Shown here: positions 2,897 to 30,127 of the stretch, one piece after another | Layout: the number at the start of each line of letters is the position of its first letter | Position numbering within the stretch: position 1 is the stretch's first letter | NCBI GenBank assembly: GCA_036752305.1 | Contig: DAIOSZ010000001.1 | Span: forward strand, 2,556-60,724 | DNA from: Burkholderiaceae bacterium | GTDB taxonomy: Bacteria > Pseudomonadota > Gammaproteobacteria > Burkholderiales > Burkholderiaceae_C | Direction: 5' to 3' | Length of the DNA: 58,169 nucleotides | The notes under the pieces: generated by a model | What the model was told of the DNA's origin: nothing | Databases searched by the model: none | What the model saw: only the letters and a program-made list of their open reading frames with translations | Program-made: the position numbers and the translations under genes

Positions 2897-3373
2897 ATGC
2901 CGCCCTCCCCCTTGACTCACTTTGACGCGCAAGGCCAGGCGCACATGGTGGACGTTTCCGCCAAGCCAGCCACGCACCGCATCGCCCGCGCGGCGGGCCG
3001 CATCTCGATGAAGCCCGAAACCTTGGCGCTGATCGCCAGCGGTTCAGCCAAGAAGGGCGATGTTCTTGGCGTAGCGCGTCTTGCCGGCATCATGGGCGCA
3101 AAAAAGACCAGCGAGCTGATCCCGCTGTGCCACCCGATCGCGCTGACCCGTGTGGCCGTGGAGTTTGAATTGATCCCGGGCGAAAGTGCCGTCGAATGTG
3201 TAGCCACCACCGAAACCATAGGCCCGACGGGCGTTGAAATGGAGGCGCTGACGGCTGTTCAGGTGGCACTGCTGACGGTTTATGACATGTGCAAGGCGGT
3301 GGATCGGGGGATGGTGATTGAGTCCGTCGTGCTGCGGAGCAAAACCGGTGGCAAGTCCGGTGAATGGAGCTAG
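2897..3373 (+). CDS. moaC: cyclic pyranopterin monophosphate synthase MoaC
   Basis: 158 aa with typical MoaC motifs ([36 protein letters not shown]). Confidence 0.95.
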
Positions 3374-4131
3374 AACGAGTCGATTTGAACAACTCCTATG
3401 GGCCGGGCGCTTTTAGAATCCAACAACACCGTCCATGCACCCTTGCGGTCCAACAAGGGCAGATAGCGCAAATCCTCCAACAAATATCCTGCCGCCGCTG
3501 CCACTCTTTTTATTGCATCGGCTTCGCCGGGAAACCGAATCGATAACCTGTCGGCTGACTGAGATTCAGACAGTATGGCGGATGTTTGAGATTCGTAGTT
3601 TGTCCACAACCAGGGTTGTGCCGCTTGCGGCGTGCCCCCGAGATCTAGCGTCGCAGAGTCGAATTGCTCGCTTGGCCCGGTGAAGCTACGTAAGGCAATC
3701 CACTGTGGCCCTGTCCATGGCAAAACGCGCAAATCGTTGGGCGCTCTAACCAGATGATCACTGGTTATGTCCGCCGCATGGACAACACGGAATCGACTGT
3801 ATTCAAACACCACGTAAACCGGCCGGGCCTGCGCAACGGTATTCAAGCCATACAGCAACGCACCAAGCTGGAGAATCCCCACAACCGTCAGATCAGCTAT
3901 TAATTCTCGACGGGATTTATCGGAACTGCAAATAATGAGGGTGATGGCAGGACCCATGACCACGTCAACTAGGATCAACAGAAAAAAAAGCTGCCGACCT
4001 CCAGATAGCTCACGATATGGATAAGGATACCAGACGCCAAATACCAACGCCGCAGAGAGTGCAGCGACGGATACGCTGACCAATAAGTGCCAACCTGCTG
4101 CACGAATGCGAGCATTTACATTGTTCGCCAT
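3370..4131 (-). CDS. type IV pilin accessory protein, FimB/TfpX-Y-Z-like membrane protein
   Basis: N-terminal TM helices and the pattern WYPYP..GG...VD.VMGP..T......K.RREL..DL.....LQL.AL.YG.....ARP.YVVFE..RF.V recall FimB/TfpZ-type accessory proteins. It sits last in the pilA locus and has AT-rich codon usage. Confidence 0.55.
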
Positions 4132-4147
4132 ACCAACTTTCCTACGG

Positions 4148-5866
4148 CTATTTTAGGTTGACCATATCATCTTCATTTTTCCTTGTTTCCCACTCATCGT
4201 ATAGCCCTGCACACGCTTTTTCGGAAAGCAACCAACAACTGCGCTCTGCCCATATTCTAGCTTCGTCAGAGTAGCCATTTACTCGATAGGCACCAATTAC
4301 TTTTCGTATAGAAAGGGGTGCTGTTGCATACAGCATAAGATTCTCCCAATGCTGGATCTCGTTTTGAGACATGCCCGTTCGAGGCGTGGCCCGAAACAGA
4401 GCAATGGCATCCGGCCAGTCAACCAGCACAATGGTTCTAGGAGGTGATTCGTCATGCCCGCTCCCAATCTTCGCCACCTGGAAACGCAGTTCAGAAAACG
4501 CAGCCTCAACCCGCAAATAATCAATCACAATTACAACCGTAATCACCAGCATCCCCACCACGACGCCTGTCATCCAATTCTTCGATATCCGAACGATTGG
4601 CTTGGGAGGGCCTAGCCTTCCAGCTATCAGTCCGAGTATGCAGCCGAATGGGAGGAGAAAATACGGATAATTGAGTGGAAACTCTAGCATCGCATGCACG
4701 CCGAAAGCCAATACGCAACCAAGTATGCAGTAGTCCACCAACGAAGAAGTCGCCTTTACGAGACGACTCAGCCATACAATACTCAAGACAAGTATGAGCG
4801 CGGCAATCGGCCATCCCACCCACAACGCCAAGTCCAATATTAAATTGTGACTTTGCTCGAAATAGATATTTCCAATCGCCTCTTTAAAATCAAGATAAAC
4901 CCCAAAATATCCCAAATTGCTCTTTCCCCAACCATAACCGATCCAGAAACTTTTCGTGCTCGCAGCGAGGGCCATTTGCCACAGCATCAGGCGAATTTCA
5001 CCTGCATTTCGATCAACCAGGGTGCTTTGAATATCTGCATTGAGAATACGTCCAAGCATGCCCTGCGAGAATAGCGCGACAACGTAGCACCCAAATAAAA
5101 TCCAAATAGTGGTTTTGACTCGACCCGAAACATCCTTCGGCGGAAAAAACGAACAAGCAAGCACCCAAAGACTGAGCGTTAGTAAAGCATGGCGAGATTG
5201 CGTCATGGCAATACCCCAAAGAATCCAGCCACATCCAAGCAACGCGCTCAGGTTTCCGATCCGCCGAGAGCCCCACAACAATCCAATTCCCATTATTCCG
5301 CACAAGAGCAATGTTGCCAGTTGATTGGGCTGTGCAAGATTGGCGTACGGCCTAGAACCCTCATAAAAGGGGAGTATCCACACTTCGAAAAGATCAGGGT
5401 TTTTTGCATAACCCAGCCATTGATAACTGGCAATACCGGTAGATCCGATGGCGGCAAATGTCATGGCCATGATCACCAAATAGCCAATCGAAATCTCTTG
5501 TCCGCATGCTTCTGATGCGTAGCTCAGCTGATAACACACTGCAAATCCAAACAGCACAAGCGCAGTAATGATCGCATTACTTTTCAGCGGCATTAAGCCA
5601 ATGCTGTACTGCAATAGCGGCGTGATCGCCAAAAGGAGCAGCGCCAAGCTGGCCCTAGGAACTGCCAATTGTTTCGGCATGCCGCGCAGACAGTAAATAC
5701 CAATGAATGCCAGCGCAATGGACGCCCAGGCATTAGAGTGAAACGCCATCCAAGGCGGGTAATGATTGGGTATCAACCACGCGCACATCAGCAGCGCAAG
5801 AAGAATGGATTCCCAAACAGCCGCGTCGCGCCACCCGATGGTGCGCTTCATTCCGAAATCATGCAT
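4148..5866 (-). CDS. pilin O-oligosaccharyltransferase, TfpO/PilO/PglL-like (O-antigen-ligase/Wzy_C family)
   Basis: Polytopic membrane protein with the NHYPPW..FHSN motif of PglL/Wzy_C-type ligases and a soluble C-terminal domain. I chose the ATG at 5866 (alternative 5851) because the listed 6052 start overlaps pilA and the pilA terminator. Confidence 0.75.
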   Translation of the reverse strand: MHDFGMKRTIGWRDAAVWESILLALLMCAWLIPNHYPPWMAFHSNAWASIALAFIGIYCLRGMPKQLAVPRASLALLLLAITPLLQYSIGLMPLKSNAIITALVLFGFAVCYQLSYASEACGQEISIGYLVIMAMTFAAIGSTGIASYQWLGYAKNPDLFEVWILPFYEGSRPYANLAQPNQLATLLLCGIMGIGLLWGSRRIGNLSALLGCGWILWGIAMTQSRHALLTLSLWVLACSFFPPKDVSGRVKTTIWILFGCYVVALFSQGMLGRILNADIQSTLVDRNAGEIRLMLWQMALAASTKSFWIGYGWGKSNLGYFGVYLDFKEAIGNIYFEQSHNLILDLALWVGWPIAALILVLSIVWLSRLVKATSSLVDYCILGCVLAFGVHAMLEFPLNYPYFLLPFGCILGLIAGRLGPPKPIVRISKNWMTGVVVGMLVITVVIVIDYLRVEAAFSELRFQVAKIGSGHDESPPRTIVLVDWPDAIALFRATPRTGMSQNEIQHWENLMLYATAPLSIRKVIGAYRVNGYSDEARIWAERSCWLLSEKACAGLYDEWETRKNEDDMVNLK

Positions 5867-5874
5867 TTCAAATA

Positions 5875-5902
5875 GCAAATAGAAAAGGCCGCTCACGCGG
5901 CC
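5875..5902 (-). terminator. rho-independent terminator/attenuator after pilA
   Basis: On the minus strand, GGCCGC-GTGA-GCGGCC (5887-5902) is followed by TTTTCTATTT. It lies between the pilA stop (5928) and the tfpO-like start. Confidence 0.6.
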
Positions 5903-5927
5903 TATTCTATTGAATGTTGATTGTATA

Positions 5928-6407
5928 TCAGGATTGCTTGCAGGAGCCTGGCAGGTATTTTCGATCCAATGGGTTACTGGCTGCTGGGCCACACCGCCAT
6001 TCGGTAATCGCCTGTCCTCCGTTGGTGTTGCCAGCCACTGCACTAGAGCCAATATACGGCTTTAGTTCAATCTGATTGGTCGTAGTGGTTACGCTGCCGC
6101 CCAACGCGCCGGCACTGGCAGTGACCGTAATCACGCCATTCGTGTCAGAAGAACCTCCGGTAACCATCTTGGTGGGGGAAATCGTGCAGCCAGCAATAGC
6201 CGACTGCGCGTCAGCAACCGGCGAACTCTGCAATGACTCTGTAACCGTTGTACGGCAAGAGGACGCCGCCAGAATCACCTCAGAAACCCGTGCACGCACG
6301 GTGTAGTCCTGATATGCCGGCAACGCGACCGCAGCCAGAATACCAATAATGGCCACCACGATCATCAGTTCGATGAGCGTGAAGCCTTGTTGCAGTTGAC
6401 GCTTCAT
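5928..6407 (-). CDS. pilA: type IVa major pilin
   Basis: It has the class III signal and N-methylation motif ([35 protein letters not shown]). A C-terminal disulfide loop ([18 protein letters not shown]) is followed by KQS. Confidence 0.95.
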
Positions 6408-6447
6408 GGATAACCTCCTGGTAAGTGTGAAGAAGCGCAGAAGCTAA

Positions 6448-6464
6448 AGCGAGAACCGTGCCTG
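6448..6464 (-). promoter_or_regulatory. sigma-54 (RpoN) -24/-12 type promoter for pilA
   Basis: The minus strand reads CAGGCACGGTTCTCGCT, i.e. GG-N10-GC with GGCACG-N4-TCGC (consensus TGGCACG-N4-TTGC). The -12 element lies about 42 nt upstream of the pilA ATG. Confidence 0.55.
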
Positions 6465-6562
6465 ACGCCTGCGCCATTCATGGTGGCGCGAACACCGTAA
6501 AAAAGCCCGCGCTGTGTGACTCAATGGCCACTGAAGCTGCCAACCAAGGACAATTTTGTCAC

Positions 6563-8968
6563 TCACTTGATGCAAACCTGCCTGACCTGCTTCACATCTG
6601 TCAGTCCCATCAGCACCTTCTCCATACCGTCCATCTTCAAGGTTCGCATGCCGCCTTCCACAGCCTTGGCAAAGACTTCGGCCACGCGGGCGCGTTCTTG
6701 AACGAGCTTCTTGATGGCGTCGTCGGCAATCAGCAGTTCATGCAGACCGACTCGGCCCTTGTAGCCTGATCCGGCGCACTTGGCACAGCCCACCGCCTTG
6801 TACAGCTTGAGCTGCCCATCCTGCGCGTAGCGCTTGGTCCATCCGTCCAGCAGACGCTTGTACTCGCCGTCGGTATCGGCTTTCCAGGCAGCCGTGCGGC
6901 CCAACTCTTCTGCGTATTCCATGACGAAGAGGTGCAGTTCGTCCTCTTCCGGCACATACGCGGCCTTGCAATCGCCGCACAGACGCCTGGCCAGGCGCTG
7001 GGCCAGGATGCCGAGCAACGCGTCCGCGAAATTGAACGGGTCCATGCCCATGTCCAGCAGGCGCGTGATCGACTCAGGCGCGGAATTCGTGTGCAGCGTT
7101 GAAAACACCAAATGCCCGGTAAGCGAAGCTTCCACGCCCATCGACACGGTTTCCTTGTCGCGGCTTTCGCCGACCATGATGATGTCGGGGTCGGCACGCA
7201 GAAAGGCGCGCATGACCAGCGCAAAGTCGATGCCGGCCTTTTTATTGATTTGTACCTGACGCAAACCCTTCTGGGTGATTTCCACCGGGTCTTCGGCCGT
7301 CCAAATCTTGGTTTCCGGTGTGTTGAGATGGTGCAGGATGGAGTGCAGCGTGGTGGTCTTGCCGGAGCCCGTCGGTCCACAAACATAGAAAAGACCATAG
7401 GGCTTTTCTATGGTTTTGACCAACCGCTCGCGGTTGTGGTCCGTCAAACCCAGTTTTTCCAGCGGAATCGGCTCGCCTGCCGCCAAAATACGCATCACCA
7501 CATCTTCAACACCGCCGGCGGATGGAATGGTGGCAACACGCAATTCAATGTCGAGTGGTCCGAAACGCTTGAATTGGATTTTTCCATCCTGCGGCTTGCG
7601 CTTCTCGGAAATGTCGAGGTCACACATGATCTTCAGGCGCGTGATCATGGCCTGGCGAAAATGCGCGGGAACCTCGATGTAGGGTTGCAGGACGCCGTCG
7701 ATGCGCAGGCGCACACCCGTCTTGGCTTTCCCGGGCAGCGGCTCAATGTGAATGTCAGAGGCTTTTTGCTGGTACGCGTCAACAATGACCTTGTTGACGA
7801 ATTTGACCAGCTCATTGTCTGCCGCAAGCGATGCGACCGCGTCCTCGCCAGCGGGTTCATCATCGGCCATGGGCTGCAGGTCGGCCAACAACTGGTCAAT
7901 CGTCCCAGCCGCCCCCGAGCCATAAATCTGCTCGACGGTTTGCGCGAACTCACGCTGCGTCGTCACTTTCAGCACCAGGTGCGGCTGCTGCCGGAAAACC
8001 TGCTGAACCACCCGGCCCGCGCGCACGGCTTCCGGGTCCAGGCACAAAATTACCAGTCCCTCGGGTACCTGTTCCAGCGGCAGCCAGCCTTGTTCTTCAA
8101 TGAATTCGCGCTTGAGCGGGTTGTGCAGGTTGTCGATGCGCAGCCGCGCATTGGCCGCCCCTTCGTACGCAACGCCAAAAAACTTGCCCAGCGCATGACC
8201 AACGTCGCTGGCCGTCAACCCCAGCTTGCCGATGAGCACATCTTCCACGTGAACCTGTTCGTCACGCGCCCGCTGCACACATTCCTGCAATTCCGCCTGC
8301 GTTACACGCCCATCGGTGACGAGTGCGTCGTATTTGGTGGGCTTGTGCTGGGCAACGAATTGCCCTCCCGAGCGCTGGCGCTGCCGGATCGCCGTGGCCA
8401 GCGTCTTGCACAACTGGGCCGCGCCATCCACGTCAAGCGCAGAAAATGGACGATCGGCTTTGTTGTTGATGATCTGCAGCACGCCGTGCAACTGCTTCCC
8501 GTCCAAAATGGGCTGCACCAGCATCTGCTTGGTGCGGTATCCGGAGCGCTTGTCAACCTCCTGCAAAAAAGTAAGGTCCGGATGGAGCCTGCGCAGATCT
8601 TCCTCGACGTAGACATCGGCGATGTTGAGCGGCTGTCGGCTCATGGCCACGTAGCCGGCAAGACTTTGCGTGCCCACCGGTAGCTTGAGTTCCCGCGCGG
8701 TGTTCAGGCCCGTTTTGACCTTGGAGACAATGGAGGCCTGATCCTCACCCATCGCGTACAGCGTGAAGCGATCGGCGTTGAACAGCCGACAAATGTCGCT
8801 GCTCAGCTCAAGCATGAGCTGATCAAGGTTCTCGGTGTCGTGGATGCGCGTGGTGACCTGTTGCAACTGGCGGAAAAACAGCGCCTCGAACGAAAGCCCA
8901 CGCTTGTCGCCGCCTTCTGTCCTTGGAAAACCGCCGAGCGTGGAGTTGGGTGCCTCAACGCCGTTCAC
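6563..8968 (-). CDS. PilB/GspE-family secretion/pilus ATPase with N-terminal GAF domain (801 aa)
   Basis: Residues ~25-190 look like a GAF domain. A T2SSE_N-like region follows, then Walker A (GPTGSGKTTT), Walker B (IIMVGESRD), a His box (GHLVFSTLHTN) and a tetra-Cys motif (CGDC...CAKC). The GTG start at 8968 overlaps the upstream stop. Confidence 0.85.
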   Translation of the reverse strand: MNGVEAPNSTLGGFPRTEGGDKRGLSFEALFFRQLQQVTTRIHDTENLDQLMLELSSDICRLFNADRFTLYAMGEDQASIVSKVKTGLNTARELKLPVGTQSLAGYVAMSRQPLNIADVYVEEDLRRLHPDLTFLQEVDKRSGYRTKQMLVQPILDGKQLHGVLQIINNKADRPFSALDVDGAAQLCKTLATAIRQRQRSGGQFVAQHKPTKYDALVTDGRVTQAELQECVQRARDEQVHVEDVLIGKLGLTASDVGHALGKFFGVAYEGAANARLRIDNLHNPLKREFIEEQGWLPLEQVPEGLVILCLDPEAVRAGRVVQQVFRQQPHLVLKVTTQREFAQTVEQIYGSGAAGTIDQLLADLQPMADDEPAGEDAVASLAADNELVKFVNKVIVDAYQQKASDIHIEPLPGKAKTGVRLRIDGVLQPYIEVPAHFRQAMITRLKIMCDLDISEKRKPQDGKIQFKRFGPLDIELRVATIPSAGGVEDVVMRILAAGEPIPLEKLGLTDHNRERLVKTIEKPYGLFYVCGPTGSGKTTTLHSILHHLNTPETKIWTAEDPVEITQKGLRQVQINKKAGIDFALVMRAFLRADPDIIMVGESRDKETVSMGVEASLTGHLVFSTLHTNSAPESITRLLDMGMDPFNFADALLGILAQRLARRLCGDCKAAYVPEEDELHLFVMEYAEELGRTAAWKADTDGEYKRLLDGWTKRYAQDGQLKLYKAVGCAKCAGSGYKGRVGLHELLIADDAIKKLVQERARVAEVFAKAVEGGMRTLKMDGMEKVLMGLTDVKQVRQVCIK

Positions 8969-9756
8969 AGCTCAAACTCCTGTCCGGCGTGCAGCCAGCG
9001 AATGTCGTGCACCACATTGCCGTTGATCGACTGGGTTTGGTCAAAGCGTTGAACCTCTTCCATGATGAGATCGGTTTCGGCCGGTTTGGTATGCGTGATG
9101 TAGATGGGAAAGCGCTTGTCGGTGTCGATGCAATCGAGCTCATCGGCCAGCGTATGCGGCGCCAGGTGCAGCGCGCGGCGCGCGAGATTGGCCTCTCGAT
9201 TGCTGAACGCGGTCTCGATGACCAGCATCGCCACGTTGAGTTGGTTAAGCCGCTGCCAGAACGCCGGGTTGCGCTCGGTATCGCCCGTGAACACCCAGCA
9301 GCCAGCGCCCTCGGTGATCGCATAACCCACCGCCGGCACTGTGTGCACCGCGGGCAGAACCTCGATCACCTTTCCCTCCAGCGCCAGCACCTGACCGATC
9401 CGAATCGGGACATAGCGTATGAATGGTGCCTGCGGCGTCGGAATCCGGCTGAAGTCAGGCCAGATCAAATCGTTGAAGATGTGCGCCTGCAGCGCGTCGA
9501 TCGTGCCTTGCAGCGCATACACCAGCACCGGCGCCTTTCGCCGCGCCGCGATCGAATCCACCATCAAAGGCAGCGCCGCCACGTGATCGAGATGCGAATG
9601 CGTGATCAGCACATGGTCAATGGCCGCCATTTCATCGAGCGTCAGATCGCCCACGCCAGTACCCGCGTCCACGAGGATATGCCTATCCACCAGGAACGAC
9701 GTCGTTCGGCAATCCTTGGCGATCGCGCCAGAACAGCCCAGCACGCGAACTCTCAT
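8965..9756 (-). CDS. class II 3',5'-cyclic-nucleotide phosphodiesterase (metallo-beta-lactamase fold)
   Basis: It carries the class II PDE signature HSHLDHVAALP (HxHLDH). Size is 263 aa. Confidence 0.8.
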   Translation of the reverse strand: MRVRVLGCSGAIAKDCRTTSFLVDRHILVDAGTGVGDLTLDEMAAIDHVLITHSHLDHVAALPLMVDSIAARRKAPVLVYALQGTIDALQAHIFNDLIWPDFSRIPTPQAPFIRYVPIRIGQVLALEGKVIEVLPAVHTVPAVGYAITEGAGCWVFTGDTERNPAFWQRLNQLNVAMLVIETAFSNREANLARRALHLAPHTLADELDCIDTDKRFPIYITHTKPAETDLIMEEVQRFDQTQSINGNVVHDIRWLHAGQEFEL

Positions 9757-9779
9757 GTGCGTTTCTCCCTTTAGGCGGC

Positions 9780-12029
9780 CTACTTGCTGTCGAAGTTGGT
9801 CGCTCCATCCCAGGACAGGTCAAGCGGCGCTTCGCGCATGTCGATGACCCGCTGCGAGAACAACTGATAGAGACCATTTTCCGGGGCCATGCGCTTGAGG
9901 TTGAACAGGTGCAACTCGGCCTGGTCCCAATCCTGGGCGCGAAAGGCCTTGAGAAACGCCCCCCACAACTTGAGTTCATCACCAGCTTTCGCCGCATCAC
10001 CCTCGCGCAACGTGTAGATCGACACGGCCTGCTGCTTGCCCTTGACACGCACGCGGTCGAGTTCCTGCCAGGGAAGATCTGGCGCGGCGCGGCGTGTCTG
10101 CTCGCTGGCCACGATGTCCACGTCGTAAAAGCGCGTCAGCCCTTCGAGCCTTGCGCCAAGATTGACCGAGTCGCCGATCACCGTGTAGGCGCGGCGCGAA
10201 TCCGACCCCATGTTGCCCACGCACATGGAACCGGTATTGAGGCCGATGCCCACACCGACTTCCGGCAAGCCCCTCGCGCGGTGGTCGGCATTCACTTCGT
10301 TGATTGCATCCAGCATCTGGCGCGCCGCGCGGCACGCCAGCGCCGCGTGGTCGGGTTGGTCCACCGGAGCGCCCCAGAACGCCATCACGCAATCGCCCAT
10401 GAACTTGTCGGTGGTACCCATGTTGGAATCGATCACCTGTGTGAGCCGCGAGAACAGATTGTTCAGCAAGCCCTGCAATGCCACCGGATCCATGCGTTCG
10501 GACAGTTTCGTAAACCCGCGCATGTCGCAGAACATCACGGTCAGCTCCTTGTTCTTCGCCTCCATGCTGTAGCTCTCGGGACGCTTGACCATCTCCTCAA
10601 CGAGCGCGGGCGGTACGTAGGTGCCAAACAAGCGCGCCAAACTGCGCTTGGATCGGCTTTCAACGAAATACCCGTAGCTCATGTTGAGCGCAAAGGCCGC
10701 CAGCACCAGCAAAACCGAAGCCGCCAAGGGCATCACCAGCCCCTGACTCTCGTACAGCCACCAATTGAGCCCGGACAAAGCCGCTAGCACGCCCACGCAC
10801 ACCAGCACGGCGATGGGCGCGGTCACCGCCGGCAGCACGAATGCCAGCAGCAGCCCCACGGCCAGCAGCATGAGAACGTCATAGCCCATCGCATAGTCGG
10901 GAACAACGGGCAGGCGGTCATCCAGAAGCCCCGACAGCAGGTTTGCGTGAATTTCCACCCCTGGATACACCTGGCTGACAGGCGTCACGCGCAAGTCCTG
11001 AAGGCCCGGCGCCGTGGTTCCAACAAACACCACGCGCCCCTGCAATTGTCCCGGCGTCAGCTTGCCTTCGATGATGTCGGAGGCGGAGACATACCGAAAA
11101 GACCCGCCCGCCTCTCCGCCCTGCCCGCGAAAAGGCACCAGTGTCGCGACGCGGCGATCTACTGGCAATGCCTGAAAATCCTTGCCATCGCGGCGCAACT
11201 TGACGCTTTCAAGATGCTGATAACTACGGCCAAGAAAGCGCTCGGGCGGGAACCCGGGCAGCACCTGTGGCATGCCCTGCGTGAGCCGATAGACAGCCAG
11301 CGCCAGCGATTCGTAGTACCCACCTTTGTATTCCACCAGCAACGGCACCGCCCGCACCATGCCGTCGCCGTCCACGATCGGGTTGAAGAATCCGCCCAGC
11401 GGCGCCGCGCTCGCAAAGCGCGCGAGATTCGACCCGTAGCCGTTCCAACTCGTGAAACGGATCGGCCGCCCCTTGAGCGCGGCGGCGTCCATCACCGGCG
11501 CGGGGATGACTCCGGAAGTTCGTCCGTCCCGGTCACTCGTGAAGTAATAGCCCATCACGACGGCCCGATTCTTCAGCGACTGGGCAAACTGCCCGTCGTA
11601 GTCCAGCTTGGGGGCTAACTCTCCGAACTTCTCGACAAAATTCGCGTCGTCCTTGAGAGCCCCTTTCGAGAGGTCCTCCAACCGCCTCAGGCCCGAGCTT
11701 TCATCCGGCTCCGCAAACACCACGTCAAACGCCGCCACCGCGATCTTCTGCTCGTCAAACAGCGCGTCGATCATGCGCGCAACCTTGTCGCGTGGCCAAG
11801 GCCAGCGGCCCACCGCAGCCAGGCTCTTTTCGTCGATGTCAACGATGACGATCCGGTCGTCAAGCGTCTGCGGCATCGTGGCCCGCAGCCGCGCGTCGTA
11901 GATCACATCGTCGAGTTGCTGCACCAAGCGCAGCGGCTGCACTTCCATCGCGTGCAGCAGCGCAAACAGCAGCGGCACCAACGTGAGCGCCACCCGTGGC
12001 CAAGACTTGAAAATGGCGCCAACGGACAT
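9780..12029 (-). CDS. CHASE2 sensor domain-containing class III adenylate/guanylate cyclase
   Basis: N-terminal CHASE2 signature (IVDIDEKSLAAVGRWPWPRD), then TM helices. The C-terminal cyclase domain has both metal Asp residues (FCDMRGFT, FMGDCVMAFWGAP) and VNLGARLE. Confidence 0.9.
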   Translation of the reverse strand: MSVGAIFKSWPRVALTLVPLLFALLHAMEVQPLRLVQQLDDVIYDARLRATMPQTLDDRIVIVDIDEKSLAAVGRWPWPRDKVARMIDALFDEQKIAVAAFDVVFAEPDESSGLRRLEDLSKGALKDDANFVEKFGELAPKLDYDGQFAQSLKNRAVVMGYYFTSDRDGRTSGVIPAPVMDAAALKGRPIRFTSWNGYGSNLARFASAAPLGGFFNPIVDGDGMVRAVPLLVEYKGGYYESLALAVYRLTQGMPQVLPGFPPERFLGRSYQHLESVKLRRDGKDFQALPVDRRVATLVPFRGQGGEAGGSFRYVSASDIIEGKLTPGQLQGRVVFVGTTAPGLQDLRVTPVSQVYPGVEIHANLLSGLLDDRLPVVPDYAMGYDVLMLLAVGLLLAFVLPAVTAPIAVLVCVGVLAALSGLNWWLYESQGLVMPLAASVLLVLAAFALNMSYGYFVESRSKRSLARLFGTYVPPALVEEMVKRPESYSMEAKNKELTVMFCDMRGFTKLSERMDPVALQGLLNNLFSRLTQVIDSNMGTTDKFMGDCVMAFWGAPVDQPDHAALACRAARQMLDAINEVNADHRARGLPEVGVGIGLNTGSMCVGNMGSDSRRAYTVIGDSVNLGARLEGLTRFYDVDIVASEQTRRAAPDLPWQELDRVRVKGKQQAVSIYTLREGDAAKAGDELKLWGAFLKAFRAQDWDQAELHLFNLKRMAPENGLYQLFSQRVIDMREAPLDLSWDGATNFDSK

Positions 12030-12066
12030 GGTAACAATACCGTTCAGCGCCGCGGGTCTGCGCCGC

Positions 12067-12723
12067 CTAGTGCACCACGAACTGCATGGAAGTACCCGCG
12101 AGATCGAGCATGTCGCCGTTGCTCAAGGTCGTGGGCGCGCTGCCAACGGGCTTACCGTTGACTTTTGGCGGCTCGGCTCCCTCAACGTGCGCGAGCACGA
12201 AACCATTGGGCCGGCGCGTGATGGAGGCCACACCCACTCCGGGCTTGCCCAGCGTCGTGACGACTTTGGTCAGCGGCACTTCGCGGCCGGCCGCGGGCCC
12301 CGTGGTCACCTTGATCGAGGCCTGCATCTCCATGCCGCTGTTAACAAACCCCGAAGGAGCAGCCGTCTGGGCCGCCACGGGCGCCGCGGGCACGGCGCCC
12401 GGCCGTACGATCATGGTCTTGTCGTAGTCACCGACCGGTTCGTTGACGAAGCGGATCTTGTACTTGCCAATCTCGACCGAGTCGTTGTGGTGCAAGGCCT
12501 GCTTCTTGATGGCCTTGCCGTTGATGTAGGTACCGTTGGTGCTGTTGAGATCCTCCAAGAAGATCTCCGGCCCGGCCATCTGCACGACCGCGTGCTCGCC
12601 GCTGACGGCAAGATTGTCGATCACGATGTCGTTGTATGGTCGCCGGCCCAGGGTGGTGCGATCCTTGACGATCTGCACTTCCTTGATGACGACACCGTCG
12701 ATCGAAACGATCATCTTCGGCAT
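12067..12723 (-). CDS. FHA domain protein (N-terminal FHA plus C-terminal FHA-like domain)
   Basis: FHA signature TLGRRPYNDIVIDNLAVSGEHAVV...STNGTYING at the N-terminus. A second beta-rich segment (TTLGKPGVGVASI...VNGKPV) follows a Pro/Ala linker. Confidence 0.85.
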   Translation of the reverse strand: MPKMIVSIDGVVIKEVQIVKDRTTLGRRPYNDIVIDNLAVSGEHAVVQMAGPEIFLEDLNSTNGTYINGKAIKKQALHHNDSVEIGKYKIRFVNEPVGDYDKTMIVRPGAVPAAPVAAQTAAPSGFVNSGMEMQASIKVTTGPAAGREVPLTKVVTTLGKPGVGVASITRRPNGFVLAHVEGAEPPKVNGKPVGSAPTTLSNGDMLDLAGTSMQFVVH

Positions 12724-12795
12724 GGTCGACTCCTGACAATTTCTATGAATGAGTGGGTTGGAATGGGCCGGACGCGAGACTTGATGCGACTCGGT

Positions 12796-13581
12796 TCATG
12801 GTGAAAGCCATCGTGCCAGCAAACCCTTTCGGGTACCTTCCACGCGCGCCTTCACCAACAACACGGAAATATTATCCCGCCCCCCATTGGCATTGGCGGT
12901 ATCAATCAAGCTCTCCGCAACCTGCTCCAGGCTCTGCTGTGCGCCGAGCAAACGGGCAATCGCTTCATCATCCATCATGTCGGACAAGCCATCAGAGCAC
13001 ATCATGTACAGATCACCGGACTCGACCTTGAAGTCATTGACCTCCAGATCCACGGCCTCATCGACACCGAGCGCGCGCGTCACCAAATTCTTGTTCACCG
13101 AAACCGCCGCCTGCTCGGCCGTGATATAGCCTGCATCCAGTTGCTCCTGCAACAATGAGTGATCGCGCGTGATCTGCATCAGCACGCCGGCACGCAAGCG
13201 ATAGCAGCGCGAATCTCCCACATGCCCCAGCACCAGGCGGTTGCCGTGGAACACTCCGACCACCACAGTCGTGCCCATGCCCGCGTATTGCCGGTTCGTT
13301 GACGCCGCCCTGAAGATGGACGTATTCGCGTTCTCCACGCAGATGCGCAGCGCCCGTTGAATCTCACGCGGCATGGCTTTGCGCTCGACCTCGCGCAGCC
13401 AGCGGGACAGTTCGGACACGATGAACGCCGTTGCCATGCCGCTGGCCACTTCACCCGCCGCATATCCGCCCATGCCGTCGGCCAGCACGGCCACGCCGGT
13501 TGGCGGATCGAAATGCACCGCGTCTTCGTTGTTGCCGCGCACCTTCCCAGGATCGGTGCGCGCGCAGAATTCGTACTGCAT
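12796..13581 (-). CDS. PP2C-family Ser/Thr protein phosphatase
   Basis: Motifs RGNNEDA, LADGMGG, CSDGLSD and GGRDNISV are present. I chose the ATG at 13581; the alternative TTG at 13614 would overlap the kinase stop by 4 nt. Confidence 0.9.
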   Translation of the reverse strand: MQYEFCARTDPGKVRGNNEDAVHFDPPTGVAVLADGMGGYAAGEVASGMATAFIVSELSRWLREVERKAMPREIQRALRICVENANTSIFRAASTNRQYAGMGTTVVVGVFHGNRLVLGHVGDSRCYRLRAGVLMQITRDHSLLQEQLDAGYITAEQAAVSVNKNLVTRALGVDEAVDLEVNDFKVESGDLYMMCSDGLSDMMDDEAIARLLGAQQSLEQVAESLIDTANANGGRDNISVLLVKARVEGTRKGLLARWLSP

Positions 13582-13610
13582 CGAAGCCGACGACTTGTTT
13601 CCGGCACCCG

Positions 13611-16364
13611 TCAAGATGTCGACCCTCCGTCGTCCGGGCGGCGCCCGGGCAGATGCGGTGCATCCAGTTTTTGCGTTTTCTGGCTATCCGGCTGAGCGGC
13701 TGGTTGGTAGCGGGAAATCGGCTGCGTCGCGTCGCTGCCTTCAAACGACATGGGCATCGTATGGTCGGCGGCGAATGGCACTGGAGCCGACGCGGGGGCG
13801 GCACTCGCCGCCGCAGGCGCCGCGACCAAGGCCACAAATCCTACCGCCAGTATCTGCTTGAGATCGTCCGCCAACTGGTCACCGTCCTGGTAGCGCACCT
13901 CGGGCCGCTTGGTCAGCGCAAGGGCCGCCAGACGAGCCAGATCCGGCGACAAATCCGGTCGGAAACTGCGCAAGTCGGGCGCCTCCTCATTGGCAATCTT
14001 GTACATCAGGCCAGCCATCGAGTCAGCCCGGAACGGCAGGTTGCCGGTCAGCATCTGGAACAGCATGACGCCCAGCGAATACAGGTCGGAGCGGCCATCG
14101 ACACGCGTTCCCGCGATCTGCTCGGGCGACATATAGCTCGGCGTGCCCAGCACCAGGCCGGTCTTCGTCTTGCTTGAATCGGTGATGCGCGCGATGCCGA
14201 AGTCGGTCACCTTCACCGCGTCGCTCGTGGGCTCATACATGATGTTCGCTGGCTTGATGTCGCGATGCACCACGTTTTGACGGTGTGCGTAAGCCAGCGC
14301 GCGCGCAACGCGCTCGACGATGGACAAGACCTGTGGCACCGGCAGCAACTGGCCGGGACGGCAGTAGTCGGCCAAATCCTTGCCTTTGAGAAATTCCATC
14401 GCGATGTAGGCCAGATCGTGCTCCTCGCCGGCATCGAAGATCGTCACGATATTCTGATGCTGCAGGCGCCCCGCCGTCTCGGCTTCGCGGAAGAAGCGTT
14501 CGCGCGCGTCGTCCAGGTCGCTGCCTTCGAATTCCTGGCTCAGGGCCATGGTCTTGATGGCCACTACGCGGCCAATCTTCGGATCTTTGCCCTGGTAGAC
14601 CACGCCCATGGCGCCTTTGCCCAACTCCTTTTCCACCTGGTAGCGGCCCAGCATGGGTTTTTCCACCGCGCCCCCGTCCAGCAGCATGGTGCCGCCCGGA
14701 TGCGCGGTGCCGCCGCCCAGGATGACCGTCTCCGACAAATTCTTGGCGCGGTTGAGCTTGGCGGCCAGATCCTTGTAGTTCGGCTTGTAACTGGCCATGT
14801 GCTCGTAGACCGCCTGCGCCTTGTTGAACTGACGCTTGCGCTCGAAATCCAGCGCCAAGTTGTACAGGTTGTCCATCAACGCATCGCCGATACCGGGTTC
14901 CAACGGCACGCGGCGGAAGCGATCAAAAGCCATGTCCAACTGGCCCTGGCCCTGCAACGCCAAGCCCATCATCCGGTTCGTCTCCGCCGATTCTTCATCC
15001 GATTTCACCTTGCCGGCTTCCGTGACCAGGAAGCGCTTGGTCGTGATAAGCAAATACCCTGCCACCAGCAGCGCAGCCGGAAACACCAGCCGCACCCAGA
15101 TGGACGCGCCCGCCAGCAAGCCATATTCGGAGCCCAGCAGCAACAGCAGCAAAGCCGCCGTGATGCCCGCCGCCGGACCGGCTTTCAACCGCGGCAGCAA
15201 GCCAATCACATAGGCGGAAACGACCAGAAACGCCGCCAGCGCGAGCCAGATACCCCACCCGGGTTGAACGATGAAATGTTCGCTCAGGATGCTGGAGGTG
15301 ATGTGCGCCATCGTCTCCGCGGGCGACAAGCCGGGATGCCCAGGCACCGGAAACTGCACGCCCACGCCAGCCGCCGTGGCGCCGATGATGACAATCTTGT
15401 CGGCAAATTTGGCCGCCGGCACCTTGCCGATCAGCACGTCGGAGAACGAATCGACCGGAAACGGCGCCTTGCCATCGCGGTTGGCATAAAACTGCGGGAG
15501 CATCAGCGCCGAGTCATCGGTGCGAACCTTGAGCTTGCCGATCTGCACCGAATCACCGGGATTGAGCCGCACATCACCCACGCCAAGGTTCAGGCTGCTC
15601 AGCGCCGTCATCAAGGCCATCGACGGAGCCGATCGGCCGAAATAGTCCACCAGCAGCGCCTCCTGGCGCACCGCGCCGTCGGTGTCCTGAAACTGGTTGA
15701 GGTGTCCAATACCGGCGGCCGCCTCGCCGATGACGGGAATCGGAAACTGTCCGCGCACCGCAGGCACCGCGAACCCCGGCAGCGACTCCACCGTGCTCTT
15801 GAGCACATAGGGCGGCAGCGGCTGGTCGGCGCGGCCCTGGGGCTCACCCAGCGTATAGACCGCCGGCGTCAGCACGCGGGCCGCCTTTTGCATGCTGGCC
15901 GCCAACTGACCATCGGCATCCAGCACGCGCTCGGCCTCGCCAATGACCTGATCCAGTTGCTGACGGATTTCGGGCGCCTCCGGTGGCGCCTTGGCCAGAA
16001 CATCCTTGATCTTGCGGATATAGCCCATGCCCCGGTCAGTCTGCGGCTCCAGGAAGAACGCCGTGTGCGCGATCGTCTTCGCGCCAGCCTGCGACAACTG
16101 ATCAATCAACTTGCCGTGCACGTCACGCGCCCAGGGCCAGCGGCCGATGTTGGCGATGGAGTGGTCGTCGATGGCGATCACCGCGATGCGCTCGGAAGGC
16201 TTGCGGCTGCTGGCCGTGCTGGCGGTGTCGTAGAAACGCCGCTCTAGCGAACCAAAAACGTCAGTCCACTGATTGAGTGCCAATGCAAGCGCCACGATGC
16301 ACAGCCCCAAGAACCAGTCCTGGCGCCAGATGGCCCCGCCCGGTGCCGCCAATTTGAATTTCAA
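13611..16364 (-). CDS. CHASE2 sensor domain-containing Hanks-type Ser/Thr protein kinase (917 aa)
   Basis: N-terminal CHASE2 (IAIDDHSIANIGRWPWARD), then TM helices. The C-terminal kinase has GKGAMGVVY, VAIK, HRDIKPANI, DFGIA and GTPSYMSPE. The only start near the N-terminus is a TTG. Confidence 0.9.
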   Translation of the reverse strand: MKFKLAAPGGAIWRQDWFLGLCIVALALALNQWTDVFGSLERRFYDTASTASSRKPSERIAVIAIDDHSIANIGRWPWARDVHGKLIDQLSQAGAKTIAHTAFFLEPQTDRGMGYIRKIKDVLAKAPPEAPEIRQQLDQVIGEAERVLDADGQLAASMQKAARVLTPAVYTLGEPQGRADQPLPPYVLKSTVESLPGFAVPAVRGQFPIPVIGEAAAGIGHLNQFQDTDGAVRQEALLVDYFGRSAPSMALMTALSSLNLGVGDVRLNPGDSVQIGKLKVRTDDSALMLPQFYANRDGKAPFPVDSFSDVLIGKVPAAKFADKIVIIGATAAGVGVQFPVPGHPGLSPAETMAHITSSILSEHFIVQPGWGIWLALAAFLVVSAYVIGLLPRLKAGPAAGITAALLLLLLGSEYGLLAGASIWVRLVFPAALLVAGYLLITTKRFLVTEAGKVKSDEESAETNRMMGLALQGQGQLDMAFDRFRRVPLEPGIGDALMDNLYNLALDFERKRQFNKAQAVYEHMASYKPNYKDLAAKLNRAKNLSETVILGGGTAHPGGTMLLDGGAVEKPMLGRYQVEKELGKGAMGVVYQGKDPKIGRVVAIKTMALSQEFEGSDLDDARERFFREAETAGRLQHQNIVTIFDAGEEHDLAYIAMEFLKGKDLADYCRPGQLLPVPQVLSIVERVARALAYAHRQNVVHRDIKPANIMYEPTSDAVKVTDFGIARITDSSKTKTGLVLGTPSYMSPEQIAGTRVDGRSDLYSLGVMLFQMLTGNLPFRADSMAGLMYKIANEEAPDLRSFRPDLSPDLARLAALALTKRPEVRYQDGDQLADDLKQILAVGFVALVAAPAAASAAPASAPVPFAADHTMPMSFEGSDATQPISRYQPAAQPDSQKTQKLDAPHLPGRRPDDGGSTS

Positions 16365-16501: not shown

Positions 16502-17197
16502 TCAGGAACTTGCGCCGGTGTGTTTGGCCGCCTGGCGGGCCGCCAGCCACTTGCCCAGGCCCACCACGAAGGCGGCCCCCGCAGCGGCGGCGGCGTAGTG
16601 CAGCCAAGGGTTGGCGGCCAGCACGTCTTTCAGTGCCACGTCGCTGACGATGGTCTCGCCGCCCACCCAGCCGATGAGCGCGGCGCCGAGCACCACGATG
16701 ACGGGATAACGCTCCATCAGCTTGATCATCAATGTGCTGCCGAAGATCACCAGCGGAATGCTGATCGCCAGGCCGATAACCAGGAGCGCGGTATTGCCCT
16801 TGGCTGCAGCCGCCACGGCGATCACGTTGTCCAGGCTCATCACCAAATCGGCAATCAGGATGGTGCGCACGGCCGCCATCATGCCGCCGCCGCCTTCCTT
16901 GCCGTCCTCGCCCTCTTCTTCCTCGCCCAGCAGCTGCACGCCGATCCACAGCAGCAGAATGCCCCCGATGATCTGCAAATACGGCAGTTGCAGCAACTTG
17001 GCCGCCACCACCGTCAAGACCACCCGCAGCACCACGGCCGCGCCGGAGCCGAACATGATGGCCTGCTTCTGCTGCTGGGGCGGCAGCGAGCGCGCGGCCA
17101 GCGCAATGACCACGGCGTTGTCGCCCGAGAGAATGATGTTGATCCAGATGATCTTGAGCAGACCGATCCAGAAGTCCGAGGTTTGGAGCATTTCCAT
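16502..17197 (-). CDS. TerC/YjbE-family integral membrane protein
   Basis: It has the motif ILSGDNAVVIALAA and a second DNVIAVAAAA repeat. I chose the ATG at 17197 (MEMLQTSDFW); the listed start at 17239 is a GTG just after a terminator. Confidence 0.8.
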   Translation of the reverse strand: MEMLQTSDFWIGLLKIIWINIILSGDNAVVIALAARSLPPQQQKQAIMFGSGAAVVLRVVLTVVAAKLLQLPYLQIIGGILLLWIGVQLLGEEEEGEDGKEGGGGMMAAVRTILIADLVMSLDNVIAVAAAAKGNTALLVIGLAISIPLVIFGSTLMIKLMERYPVIVVLGAALIGWVGGETIVSDVALKDVLAANPWLHYAAAAAGAAFVVGLGKWLAARQAAKHTGASS

Positions 17198-17245
17198 GGT
17201 TTTGTCTCGTCTGACGCTTGTCGCTTGTTGTGTGGCCACTCGGCC

Positions 17246-17270
17246 AAAAAAAACGCGGGCCGAGCCCGCG
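17246..17270 (-). terminator. rho-independent terminator downstream of sucD
   Basis: On the minus strand, CGCGGGC-TCG-GCCCGCG is followed by eight T (plus-strand A-run 17246-17253). Confidence 0.7.
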
Positions 17271-17373
17271 CGTGGAATCCAGGAATGGTGCCGGGGTGAG
17301 CGGCGCCAACGGCGGGTCAGCCCAGTGTAACGGCGCCAGACCCGCCCAAACTACGTGGTTGTACGGGTATGCC

Positions 17374-24200: not shown

Positions 24201-24788
24201 ATGAAAACCTCCCTCGCACTTCTTCTCGCCAGCGCCCTGGGCGCTTTCGGCCCCACGGCCATTGCCCAATCCGCCCCGGCCGATCCGTCGGGCACGCGGT
24301 TTTACGCCAATGGGCAGATCCAGAGCCAGATCGAGCAGACGCGCAGCCGCCGCACCGAGCGCGCCTTCTACCCCACCGGCGTGATGCAGCACGAAATCGT
24401 CTACGCGATGGACGGCGCCAAGCCCATCAAGGAGCGCGAGGTGCAGTTCACCCCCGCCGGGACCATGCTGCGCGAGCAGAAATGGGTGGGCGGCGAGCCG
24501 CAGCTCGACGTCGAGTTCCTCGCCAGCGGAGTGCTGCGCAGCCGCAAGGAATACATGGGATTGGGCAGCACGCGCGAGATGGTCTCGCAAAGCTACTTTG
24601 CCTCCGGCGTGCTCGCCAGCGAGGAGCGCATGGCGGTCCCGTCCAGCGGCAAACCGTTCCCGGTGGGCGTGCAAAAGAGCTTTGACGCCTCGGGCCGCTT
24701 GATCCAGGAGCGCAACTACGACGACAACGGTCGCCTGGTCTCCGAAAAATCGATGGGTCCAGCCGGCGCACTGGTGCAAACCCGCTGA
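24201..24788 (+). CDS. secreted MORN-variant repeat protein (YwqK-like)
   Basis: Signal peptide ending AIAQ. Repeated F/Y-x-x-G-x-hydrophobic-x-x-E units occur (FYANGQIQSQIE, FYPTGVMQHEIV, FLASGVLRSRKE, YFASGVLASEE, FDASGRLIQERN). Confidence 0.6.
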   Translation: MKTSLALLLASALGAFGPTAIAQSAPADPSGTRFYANGQIQSQIEQTRSRRTERAFYPTGVMQHEIVYAMDGAKPIKEREVQFTPAGTMLREQKWVGGEPQLDVEFLASGVLRSRKEYMGLGSTREMVSQSYFASGVLASEERMAVPSSGKPFPVGVQKSFDASGRLIQERNYDDNGRLVSEKSMGPAGALVQTR

Positions 24789-24850
24789 TCCAGCGGGCGG
24801 CAGGCGGCGGCTGGGCCGGGCGGGGGAGTTTTTCCGTACGATCTGCTCCC

Positions 24851-25780: not shown

Positions 25781-25834
25781 ACCATTTCCACAAAGTCCTG
25801 GACAGGATGTGCCGTTTTCCATATACTCCCCCCA

Positions 25835-26847: not shown

Positions 26848-26851
<4 letters not shown>
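25835..26851 (+). CDS. RND efflux periplasmic adaptor (HlyD/MFP family)
   Basis: Signal sequence, lipoyl/coiled-coil hairpin region (AQAEAELAQARLSLERQRALQRQGFVSQAALD) and a beta-barrel C-terminus. The stop overlaps the RND start. Confidence 0.85.

Positions 26852-30127
<3,276 letters not shown>

Follow-up and report, generated by a model that had tools for sequence, protein, structure and literature searches.

How might a pilus extension motor be controlled through a GAF domain placed in front of its N-terminus? The question is raised by a gene in a 58,169-nucleotide stretch of DNA from a Burkholderiaceae bacterium (GenBank assembly GCA_036752305.1, contig DAIOSZ010000001.1), the whole of which is called the window here. 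The gene (6563–8968, minus strand; identified by its open reading frame (ORF), translation and Pfam) encodes GAF-PilB, as it is named below, an ATPase of the type IV pilus extension type that carries a GAF domain at its N-terminus, and the gene lies in an operon with a predicted adenylate cyclase and a predicted cyclic-nucleotide phosphodiesterase (PDE). The analysis partly supports a PilB gated by a second messenger, in which a GAF domain of the type that binds cyclic nucleoside monophosphates (cNMPs) stands in place of an MshEN domain that binds cyclic di-GMP (c-di-GMP). The architecture appears to be widespread and to have escaped published study.

Architecture of GAF-PilB

The GAF-PilB ORF has a GTG start codon and encodes 801 residues; an identical protein is present in the database (P0001). 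Pfam finds a GAF domain at residues 48–194 (E 3.9e-11; 44 bits, cut-off 22.4; the GAF_2 and GAF_3 models also exceed their cut-offs), an MshEN domain at residues 278–353 (28.7 bits, cut-off 23.1) and a T2SSE domain at residues 384–795 (E 2e-114). The alignment of TIGR02538, the PilB model of NCBIfam, starts at residue 215, which corresponds to profile position 5, so the part behind the GAF domain is a complete PilB-like ATPase with N1, N2 and C-terminal domains, to which the GAF domain is added in front. An earlier interpretation of this DNA made from its letters and ORFs (the sequence-only reading) had proposed an N-terminal GAF domain and a complete ATPase core. Both proposals hold: the former is borne out by the three Pfam GAF families and by a predicted structure with the GAF fold, and the latter by the Walker A and B motifs, the His box and both cysteine pairs, all of which could be located. 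Its claim that the GAF domain replaces an MshEN or GSPII N-domain is not upheld. The N1 domain is kept behind the GAF domain, with MshEN at residues 278–353.

A GAF domain of the cyclic-nucleotide-binding lineage

The GAF domain of the cNMP-binding subfamily (residues 25–205; 8354–8896, minus strand) was delimited by a PDB sequence search, AlphaFold2 (AF2) and Foldseek. When the N-terminal 327 residues of GAF-PilB are compared with the sequences of PDB chains, the best match is Anabaena CyaB2 (E 3.8e-25), with GAF-A and GAF-B both matching. The tandem GAF domains of Anabaena CyaB2 bind cAMP. The next matches are the GAF domain of the HD-GYP enzyme PmGH (1.3e-9) and GAF-B of PDE2A (1e-7), followed in order by PDE5, PDE10, Lcd1 and PDE6. 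The top 14 matches are all cNMP-type GAF domains (E 4e-25 to 3e-5), and bilin-binding and PtsP GAF domains enter the list only at 1e-4 or weaker.

The AF2 model of residues 21–214 (predicted local distance difference test, pLDDT, of 89.9) is a six-stranded sheet with flanking helices. Foldseek places 4MCW, 1YKD and 3IBJ on top, with PmGH (4MCW) as the closest structure (E 5e-11, TM-score 0.72), and gives a probability of 1.0 to many GAF domains; structure alone is less discriminating than sequence for the subfamily. The GAF assignment is solid and, judged by its relatives in sequence, the domain belongs to the cyclic-nucleotide-binding lineage.

The putative pocket was aligned with those of CyaB2 GAF-A, CyaB2 GAF-B, PDE2A GAF-B and PmGH, and contact residues were mapped by alignment alone. 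In PDE2A, we take the contact residues to be S424, I458–A459, D485, T488, T492 and E512; T363 of CyaB2 was assigned from the sequence numbering. T69 of GAF-PilB aligns with CyaB2 T293 and PDE2A S424, and A104–G105, the IAG backbone site, aligns with PDE2A I458–A459. The segment VDKRSGYRT (residues 138–146; 8531–8557, minus strand) is the equivalent of the ligand-contact helix in these alignments: its D139, S142 and T146 align with D485, T488 and T492 of PDE2A and with D356, N359 and T363 of CyaB2. Q165 has a Gln as its counterpart in CyaB2 as well, and E512 in PDE2A. T293, I308, D356 and N359 of CyaB2 have been described, and D356 and N359, both in helix alpha4, are contacts of docked cGMP (PMC4411481).

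All seven contact-equivalent positions (T69, A104, G105, D139, S142, T146 and Q165) are invariant among 76 orthologues from related genomes. The invariant columns of the GAF domain in this set number 54 of 176 (31%), and the inclusion of all seven pocket positions among them has a hypergeometric p of about 2e-4. The pocket motifs held in common with the GAF domains of CyaB proteins and PDEs are ADRxT, IAG/LAG, D-x2-[ST]-G-[YF]-R-T and GV.Q..N.

The NKFDE region of the domain (NNKADRPFSALDV, residues 168–180; 8429–8467, minus strand) is degenerate when aligned to that of PDE2A (VNKINGPWFSKFDE). HMMER aligns the region without gaps to PDE2A GAF-B and to CyaB2, which puts the canonical N-K pair on N168–N169 and the Lys one position later (K170); F175 and D179 align, and the position of the final E is occupied by V180. 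In the 76 orthologues, N169 is conserved at 87%, K170 at 96%, and F175 and D/E179 at 100%, and E occurs at position 180 in two. NKFDE marks cNMP-binding GAF domains and makes no ligand contact (PMC11977230). The sequence-only reading had singled out residues 169–181 (NKADRPFSALDVD, nucleotides 8426–8464) as a signature of this kind. The letters and their position are correct and the match to the motif is only partial. Its wider proposal, a cNMP-type GAF domain fused to a PilB-like ATPase and tied in function to the cyclase and PDE beside it, is supported, and draws more strength from the overall homology to CyaB2 and the PDEs, and from the invariant contact positions, than from the NKFDE motif.

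The motor behind the GAF domain

In the AF2 model, the GAF domain ends in a long C-terminal helix (residues 177–205), which is followed by a short linker to the N1 domain. The latter (residues 211–380; 7829–8338, minus strand) is GSPII/MshEN-like according to Pfam MshEN and TIGR02538; searched alone against the PDB, it gives no significant match. An MshEN domain that binds c-di-GMP is recognised by two tandem 24-residue motifs, RLGxx(L/V/I)(L/V/I)xxG(L/V/I)(L/V/I)xxxxLxxxLxxQ (PMC5013675). A scan run without a positive control sequence found neither the strict pattern of this motif nor the relaxed one of the same paper in GAF-PilB, among 120 of its close homologues or among 44 diverse GAF-PilBs of full length, and c-di-GMP sensing by N1 is rejected on this absence. 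Because N1 lacks the motif across the family, the usual second-messenger input to PilB, c-di-GMP, appears to be absent throughout the GAF-PilBs.

The N2 domain and the C-terminal ATPase core (residues 384–795; 6584–7819, minus strand) were assigned by Pfam T2SSE, PDB matches and motifs. The core carries a Walker A motif (GPTGSGKTT, residues 531–539), a Walker B motif (DPDIIMVGESRD, residues 593–604) and a His box (TGHLVFSTLHTN, residues 617–628), and the Asp box and catalytic Glu were also located. A tetracysteine module is formed by CGDC (residues 664–667) and CAKC (residues 728–731), with 60 residues between the pairs (6776–6979 in the window). When aligned by HMMER, Thermus PilF lacks about 30 of the residues between the cysteine pairs of this zinc module (roughly residues 688–720, ...AEELGRTAAWKADTDGEYKRLLDGWTKRYAQDG...).

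The PDB matches of the core to PilF, PilB and EpsE are about equally strong (1e-95 to 1e-102), and databases name the protein as a member of the GspE/PulE family. The PilB equivalog model TIGR02538 is the top NCBIfam model, at 469.3 bits with a cut-off of 675.65; the GspE equivalog model TIGR02533 scores 446.7 bits, also below its cut-off (630.25). With a score under the PilB equivalog cut-off, the protein represents a subfamily of its own, and for this reason it is called PilB-like rather than a PilB equivalog. There are no gsp genes in the window or in the related loci described below.

An adenylate cyclase and a phosphodiesterase upstream

The operon reads, all on the minus strand and with short gaps, kinase, PP2C phosphatase, FHA protein, cyclase, PDE, GAF-PilB, pilin, PglL and TfpZ. 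The unit has a terminator-like hairpin on either side, one behind sucCD and one behind the pilin gene, and no terminator-like site occurs between the kinase gene and GAF-PilB. The adjacent cyclase and PDE, already pointed out in the sequence-only reading, are confirmed at 9780–12029 and 8965–9756 on the same strand as GAF-PilB.

The cyclase (9780–12029, minus strand; Pfam CHASE2 and Guanylate_cyc) combines a CHASE2 sensor with a class III catalytic domain, which is closest to that of Pseudomonas aeruginosa CyaB (3R5G, E 4e-31). Its motifs FCDMRGF, DKFMGDCVM and AYTVIGDSVNLGARLE align residue for residue with CyaB 3R5G. Both metal-binding Asp residues and the transition-state Asn and Arg are present; the roles of these residues in class III cyclases are established. 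The Lys of DKFMGD and the Thr of AYTVIGD form the same substrate-defining pair as in CyaB (DKF.GD and Y-T-[VI]-IG), and the guanylate cyclase Cya2 aligns with DEFMGD, with a Glu where the enzyme of this locus has the Lys. By these residues, the cyclase fits the pattern of a class IIIb (Lys/Thr type) adenylate cyclase.

The PDE (8965–9756, minus strand; Pfam PDEase_II and Lactamase_B_2) is predicted to be a class II enzyme with the metallo-beta-lactamase fold. It carries the class II signature HxHLDH within THSHLDHV (HSHLDH) and the sequence FNDLIWPD found in yeast class II PDE1. The PDEase_II profile (PF02112) scores 51.5 bits against a cut-off of 23.7 and is matched only in part, yeast PDE1 (4OJV) is the sole PDB match, and there is a precomputed match to the Apyc1 family. 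The stop codon of the PDE gene and the start codon of GAF-PilB overlap in GTGA, and the two genes are translationally coupled.

A Pycsar system or defence island was considered and rejected. The cyclase matches PADLOC PycC models (best 103 bits), but this match and that to Apyc1 amount to generic class III cyclase and metallo-beta-lactamase homology, and there is no transmembrane (TM) or TIR effector. Chromosomal synteny between sucCD and moaC across genera also counts against this interpretation.

A kinase, a phosphatase and an FHA protein

Three further genes of the operon had gone unnoticed in the sequence-only reading, two of which, those for the FHA protein and the PP2C phosphatase, are the most conserved partners of GAF-PilB (about 96–97% of anchored loci, defined below). 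The third encodes a Hanks-type Ser/Thr kinase with a CHASE2 sensor (13611–16364, minus strand; Pfam CHASE2 and Pkinase) and a PknB-like kinase domain. The phosphatase (12796–13614, minus strand; Pfam PP2C) belongs to the Stp1/IreP family of PP2C Ser/Thr phosphatases (NF033484, 248 bits against a cut-off of 230). The operon thus encodes two CHASE2 membrane proteins, one with a cyclase output and the other with a Ser/Thr kinase output, whose CHASE2 parts are ~24–28% identical (tblastn).

The FHA protein (12067–12723, minus strand; Pfam FHA and alignment) is 218 residues long. Its residues 1–95 are nearly invariant across genera and include the GR, SxxH and NG features of phospho-threonine-binding FHA domains, and a variable Ala/Pro linker leads to a conserved all-beta C-terminal domain. 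Inside this variable linker (residues 95–109), K102-T103-M104 and G109 are invariant in 20 homologues. By analogy with GarA and OdhI, T103 is a speculative candidate phosphosite, able perhaps to fold back onto the FHA domain. AF2 models the protein with low confidence (pLDDT 60) and Foldseek returns only FHA domains, e.g. those of GarA and OdhI; the model supports only the presence of FHA-like beta-sandwich folds. A phospho-acceptor Thr for the FHA domain was also sought in GAF-PilB itself. T211, in a K-x-T-K-Y-D linker, is common, but several orthologues have Ser or Gly at this position, and the search yielded no convincing site.

Conservation of the operon and spread of the fusion

Genome and metagenome scans gave 160 related loci, mostly from Rhodoferax, Curvibacter, Polaromonas and other Comamonadaceae, onto which the proteins of the window were mapped by tblastn. 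The metagenome scan returned close relatives only. An upstream anchor gene (sucD or terC) is present in 90 of the loci, in which all of the region upstream of GAF-PilB can therefore be seen. The full set of kinase, PP2C, FHA, cyclase and PDE genes precedes GAF-PilB in 48 of the 90 anchored loci. Twelve have only PP2C and FHA, seven have the kinase, PP2C and FHA, and 23 have other partial sets, 15 of which are without just the kinase, the cyclase or the PDE and the rest without more. Taken singly, FHA is found in 87 of the 90, PP2C in 86, the PDE in 63, the kinase in 62 and the cyclase in 58. These counts divide the operon into a near-invariant core of PP2C, FHA and GAF-PilB, and frequent but dispensable modules, namely the cyclase, the PDE and the kinase. 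A pilin gene lies 3' of GAF-PilB, within 700 nucleotides, in at least 64 related loci.

The natural variation in the cyclase and PDE allows the GAF pocket to be compared between groups of loci. No decay of the pocket is seen in loci without the cyclase or the PDE, and the pocket motifs are identical in all groups. This comparison neither supports nor refutes a coupling of the GAF domain to the local cyclase. Because the pocket is invariant in the roughly one third of loci that lack the cyclase or PDE, the GAF domain's link to the adjacent cyclase is not obligatory.

An exhaustive HMMER search with residues 1–380 of GAF-PilB against representatives clustered at 50% identity returns 163 proteins or clusters at E < 1e-30. 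Domain mapping shows the architectures GAF-N1-ATPase and GAF-GAF-N1-ATPase and one triple-GAF protein, and the versions of the fusion occur in Burkholderiales, Nitrospinota and other lineages. Tandem-GAF PilBs of 900–1040 residues are common in Nitrospinota in the profile search. In the tandem forms, the GAF domain proximal to N1 keeps the pocket motifs and the distal one often does not, which recalls the tandem GAF domains of PDEs. One Nitrospinota contig (L166, 3.37 Mb) carries three consecutive paralogous GAF-GAF-MshEN-T2SSE genes at 6800–16002, coding for 1028, 965 and 971 residues. This triplet is located between parC/parE and a gene for a Sel1 protein, with topA and dprA nearby, and a related genome (L165) has a single copy in the same place.

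Some members of the family are labelled PilB-like with a GAF domain by JGI, i.e. the architecture is already in databases. A published study of it, or of an FHA protein acting with PilB, was not found in a search that left most subscription journals outside. GAF and FHA are both absent from a review of how PilB is regulated that appeared in 2024, in which cAMP figures solely as a signal for transcription acting via Vfr (PMC11656802). Known control of PilB is exerted by c-di-GMP at N1/MshEN or by partners, which include PilZ, FimX, SgmX and phage inhibitors.

How the motor may be controlled

The answer that we favour, with moderate confidence, is that cAMP gates pilus extension post-translationally at PilB through the GAF domain, and that a second input arrives through phospho-threonine. 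The membrane CHASE2 adenylate cyclase, encoded two genes upstream, would make cAMP in response to an extracytoplasmic cue, and this cAMP would bind to PilB in the pocket of its GAF domain. The GAF domain might then, by way of its long C-terminal helix, the short linker and N1, alter the assembly of the hexamer, its engagement with the pilus platform or the cycling of the ATPase. By analogy with other cNMP-GAF enzymes, the effect would most likely be to switch extension on. The class II PDE, translationally coupled to PilB, would reset the signal. The second input would come from the CHASE2 Ser/Thr kinase, PP2C and the small FHA protein, of which FHA and PP2C would probably act by a phospho-threonine-dependent interaction that involves either PilB or the linker of the FHA protein itself. 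As its substrate, the motor would have the glycosylated major pilin encoded directly downstream.

A more ambitious version of this scheme is possible but rather doubtful. It holds that the dedicated cyclase and the co-translated PDE maintain a private cAMP pool, and that the kinase/PP2C/FHA channel converges with it in a two-channel envelope-sensing circuit that feeds into PilB and replaces c-di-GMP and MshEN.

Several observations weigh against gating by cAMP. About 36% of the orthologous loci have no adjacent cyclase and 30% have no PDE, with the pocket unchanged. The linker between GAF and N1 has a pLDDT below 50, which predicts flexibility; in cyclases and PDEs regulated by GAF domains, the connectors are rigid helices. 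A 7-residue insertion, VEEDLRR, precedes HPDL near the pocket lid and is found in none of the reference cNMP GAF domains. The NKFDE motif, with its K shifted by one and its E replaced by V, is incomplete and gives weak evidence that is mildly unfavourable; in the GAF-B domain of PDE2, every NKFDE residue is required for cGMP binding (PMC11977230). The closest structural neighbour of the domain, the GAF domain of PmGH, is not known to bind a particular ligand. In two genomic contexts of Nitrospinota tandem-GAF PilBs, no cyclase, PDE or FHA gene is found nearby. Finally, the genome paper of Ramlibacter tataouinensis describes one pilus machine with three PilB paralogues, and GAF-PilB may likewise be one of several PilBs in its family.

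Some of these observations are shared by an alternative that is unlikely but the most probable of the rivals: the GAF domain is not a cNMP receptor at all and instead has another ligand or serves in dimerisation or partner binding, PilB is controlled mainly by the kinase, PP2C and FHA branch, and the cyclase and PDE serve, for example, a Crp/Vfr-type regulator. The degenerate NKFDE motif, the GAF domain of PmGH and the absence of a cyclase near the Nitrospinota GAF-GAF-PilBs all fit this alternative, as do the near-universal FHA (87/90) and PP2C (86/90) beside a dispensable cyclase (58/90) and PDE (63/90), and an FHA domain that is almost invariant across genera. Moreover, the known control of type IV pili by cAMP is transcriptional (PMC11656802). 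However, the sequence similarity of the domain is highest specifically to cNMP-binding GAF domains, the contact-equivalent positions are invariant, all seven of them, although a module for dimerisation alone would have no need of this, and the PDE is translationally coupled to PilB.

An improbable variant of the cAMP scheme is that the GAF domain binds another cyclic nucleotide made by the adjacent cyclase, for instance cGMP or a pyrimidine cNMP (cCMP or cUMP, say). The domain is also similar to the cGMP-binding GAF domains of PDE2A, PDE5 and PDE6, and the isolated CyaB2 GAF-B binds cAMP as well as cGMP (PMC4411481). The match of the cyclase domain to PycC models and that of the PDE to the Apyc1 family, members of which degrade several cNMPs, point in the same direction. 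Against this, the positions of the cyclase that define the purine are occupied by Lys and Thr, just as they are in CyaB, with no Glu as in Cya2, the best match of the GAF domain is the cAMP-specific CyaB2, and the equivalent of PDE2A E512 is Gln, as in CyaB2. A Pycsar effector is also missing, and the synteny of the locus, which lies between sucCD and moaC, shows that it is not a mobile defence island.

It is very improbable that the ATPase is no pilus motor and instead serves a GspE-type or type II secretion system encoded elsewhere, with its proximity to the pilin gene incidental: the missed PilB cut-off (469 against 675.65 bits), the near score for GspE (447 bits), the GspE/PulE naming, the similar PDB matches to PilF, PilB and EpsE and the lack of pilC, pilD and pilM–Q in the window would allow it, but a type IVa major pilin gene about 150–250 nucleotides downstream, both in the window and in 64 or more of the related loci, with PglL/TfpO and TfpZ, the absence of gsp genes nearby and PilB as the top NCBIfam model argue for a pilus motor.

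If the GAF domain does bind cAMP, no earlier case would exist of an ATPase of the secretion superfamily with an integral receptor for a cyclic mononucleotide, and the locus would offer a simple system for the control of the hexamer by the N-terminal region of PilB, which is poorly understood. Cultured carriers exist, among them Variovorax terrae, Caenimonas soli, Curvibacter sp. APW13 and Ramlibacter spp., and operons that naturally have or lack the cyclase, PDE or kinase are ready comparisons.

Comparison with known systems

The nearest relatives by design are the tandem GAF domains of the Anabaena adenylate cyclases CyaB1/CyaB2 (1YKD) and of mammalian PDE2, 5, 6, 10 and 11, which are of the same GAF lineage and follow the logic proposed for GAF-PilB, an N-terminal cNMP sensor fused to the regulated enzyme. 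The output in GAF-PilB is a hexameric secretion-superfamily ATPase, whereas theirs is a dimeric cyclase or PDE. The clade of GAF-PilB also differs in its single GAF domain, degenerate NKFDE motif, 7-residue insertion and flexible linker in place of a continuous helix. The GAF domain of PmGH (4MCW), closest by structure and second by sequence, has DKR[ST]GYRT in common with that of GAF-PilB and is joined to a different output domain. Tlr0485, a GAF-HD-GYP protein related to PmGH, is reported to be cAMP-dependent (bioRxiv 10.1101/2021.11.05.467447).

Sensing of a nucleotide messenger by the N-terminal module of an extension ATPase has precedents in MshE, PilB2 of C. perfringens and the PilBs of C. 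thermophilum and M. xanthus (PMC5013675, PMC11656802). The N1 domain of GAF-PilB is homologous to the MshEN family, but both 24-residue motifs are absent in all 164 GAF-PilBs scanned. GAF-PilB further differs from the MshEN ATPases in that its putative sensor is formed by a GAF domain of its own and would have a cyclic mononucleotide as ligand. A membrane class IIIb cyclase whose cAMP is tied to type IV pili is likewise found in the CyaB-cAMP-Vfr/Pil-Chp system of P. aeruginosa (PMC11656802). In Pseudomonas, cAMP acts via the transcription factor Vfr, whereas the candidate receptor at the GAF-PilB locus is inside the motor protein. Here, in addition, the cyclase, PDE and motor are encoded in one operon and the cyclase has CHASE2 as its sensor.

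For the kinase, PP2C and FHA genes, there is a parallel in PpkA-PppA-Fha1, the threonine phosphorylation pathway of type VI secretion in P. aeruginosa. In both cases, genes for a Hanks kinase, a PP2C and an FHA protein stand beside that of an ATPase-driven machine, which they presumably gate. The machine here is a type IV pilus motor and the kinase has a CHASE2 sensor, so this is a resemblance and not membership. GarA and OdhI of actinobacteria are small FHA regulators too, and the FHA protein of the locus, with its linker Thr (T103), resembles their self-inhibiting design.

Pilin cassette and other genes of the window

Directly downstream of GAF-PilB, the operon continues with a type IVa major pilin (5928–6407, minus strand; Pfam N_methyl and Pilin), which has a prepilin leader, a disulfide loop and a C-terminal Ser. 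A terminator-like hairpin (5886–5903, minus strand) is located directly 3' of its gene. Next are a PglL/TfpO-type O-oligosaccharyltransferase of 567 residues (4148–5851, minus strand; Pfam PglL_A, Wzy_C and Wzy_C_2) and a TfpX/TfpZ (FimB) pilin accessory protein (3370–4131, minus strand; NF041437, 224 bits against a cut-off of 200, and PF27166 FimB). The sequence-only reading had described the ATPase as separated from any machinery genes. It was right about pilC, pilD, pilMNOPQ and the secretin gene, none of which is present among the ORFs scanned across the rest of the window, but the ATPase gene has the pilin, PglL and TfpZ genes directly downstream.

The pilin ends in ...LPGSCKQS, with the last residue, Ser, just past the disulfide loop. 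This Ser recalls the group I pilin of P. aeruginosa, in which TfpO glycosylates the C-terminal Ser, and fits the PglL/TfpO-like neighbour. The GC content is about 49% at 4–6 kb (the pilin/PglL/TfpZ segment, 3370–6407) and about 65–68% elsewhere in the window. In most of the orthologous loci, the identity of the pilin is only 40–50%, and the loci differ in their accessory genes, with PglL alone, TfpZ alone, the two together or none. The segment 3370–6407 looks like an exchangeable pilin/glycosylation cassette behind a conserved block of motor and signalling genes. The P. aeruginosa group I pilin with TfpO/PilO and the TfpX/TfpZ cassettes similarly consist of a pilin gene followed by a PglL/Wzy_C transferase and TfpZ in a low-GC variable cassette. 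In contrast to these, both accessory types occur together here, and the extension ATPase gene is upstream on the same strand and not divergent with pilCD.

A sigma-54-like element in front of the pilin gene (6408–6562) is only a weak match (GGCACGGTTCTCGC). A conserved sigma-54 promoter at this place was rejected, since no more than 6 of the 64 related loci have a clean TGGCAC-N5-TTGC.

On the upstream side of the kinase gene, the operon borders directly on a gene of the TerC/YjbE family (16502–17271), with a strong terminator-like hairpin ahead of it (17253–17271). NCBI groups this family as riboswitch-controlled; a search of the window with Rfam finds no RNA family, including no yybP-ykoY or other riboswitch upstream of TerC/YjbE.

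The other ORFs scanned in the window are housekeeping or unrelated genes. At 26848–30131, an AcrB/RND transporter is split into two ORFs with a 4-nucleotide overlap, the first of which (656 residues) covers profile positions 10–604 and the second (438 residues) has its best-scoring stretch at 846–1019; a frameshift, a pseudogene or an assembly error could account for the split. Upstream of this pump, a 716-residue ORF (24716–26866, minus strand) with no Pfam match and moderate third-position GC is overlapped by plus-strand ORFs. A gene for an NrsF-family anti-sigma factor lies near one of the MbnB/TglH/ChrH (DUF692) family at 40698–43243, a pairing that recurs in many proteobacteria. Two more genes, seemingly unrelated to GAF-PilB, encode a homologue of calpain-family cysteine proteases (48266–49933, 555 residues) and a sensor histidine kinase of the 7TMR-DISM type that contains a PAS domain (52131–54536, 801 residues).

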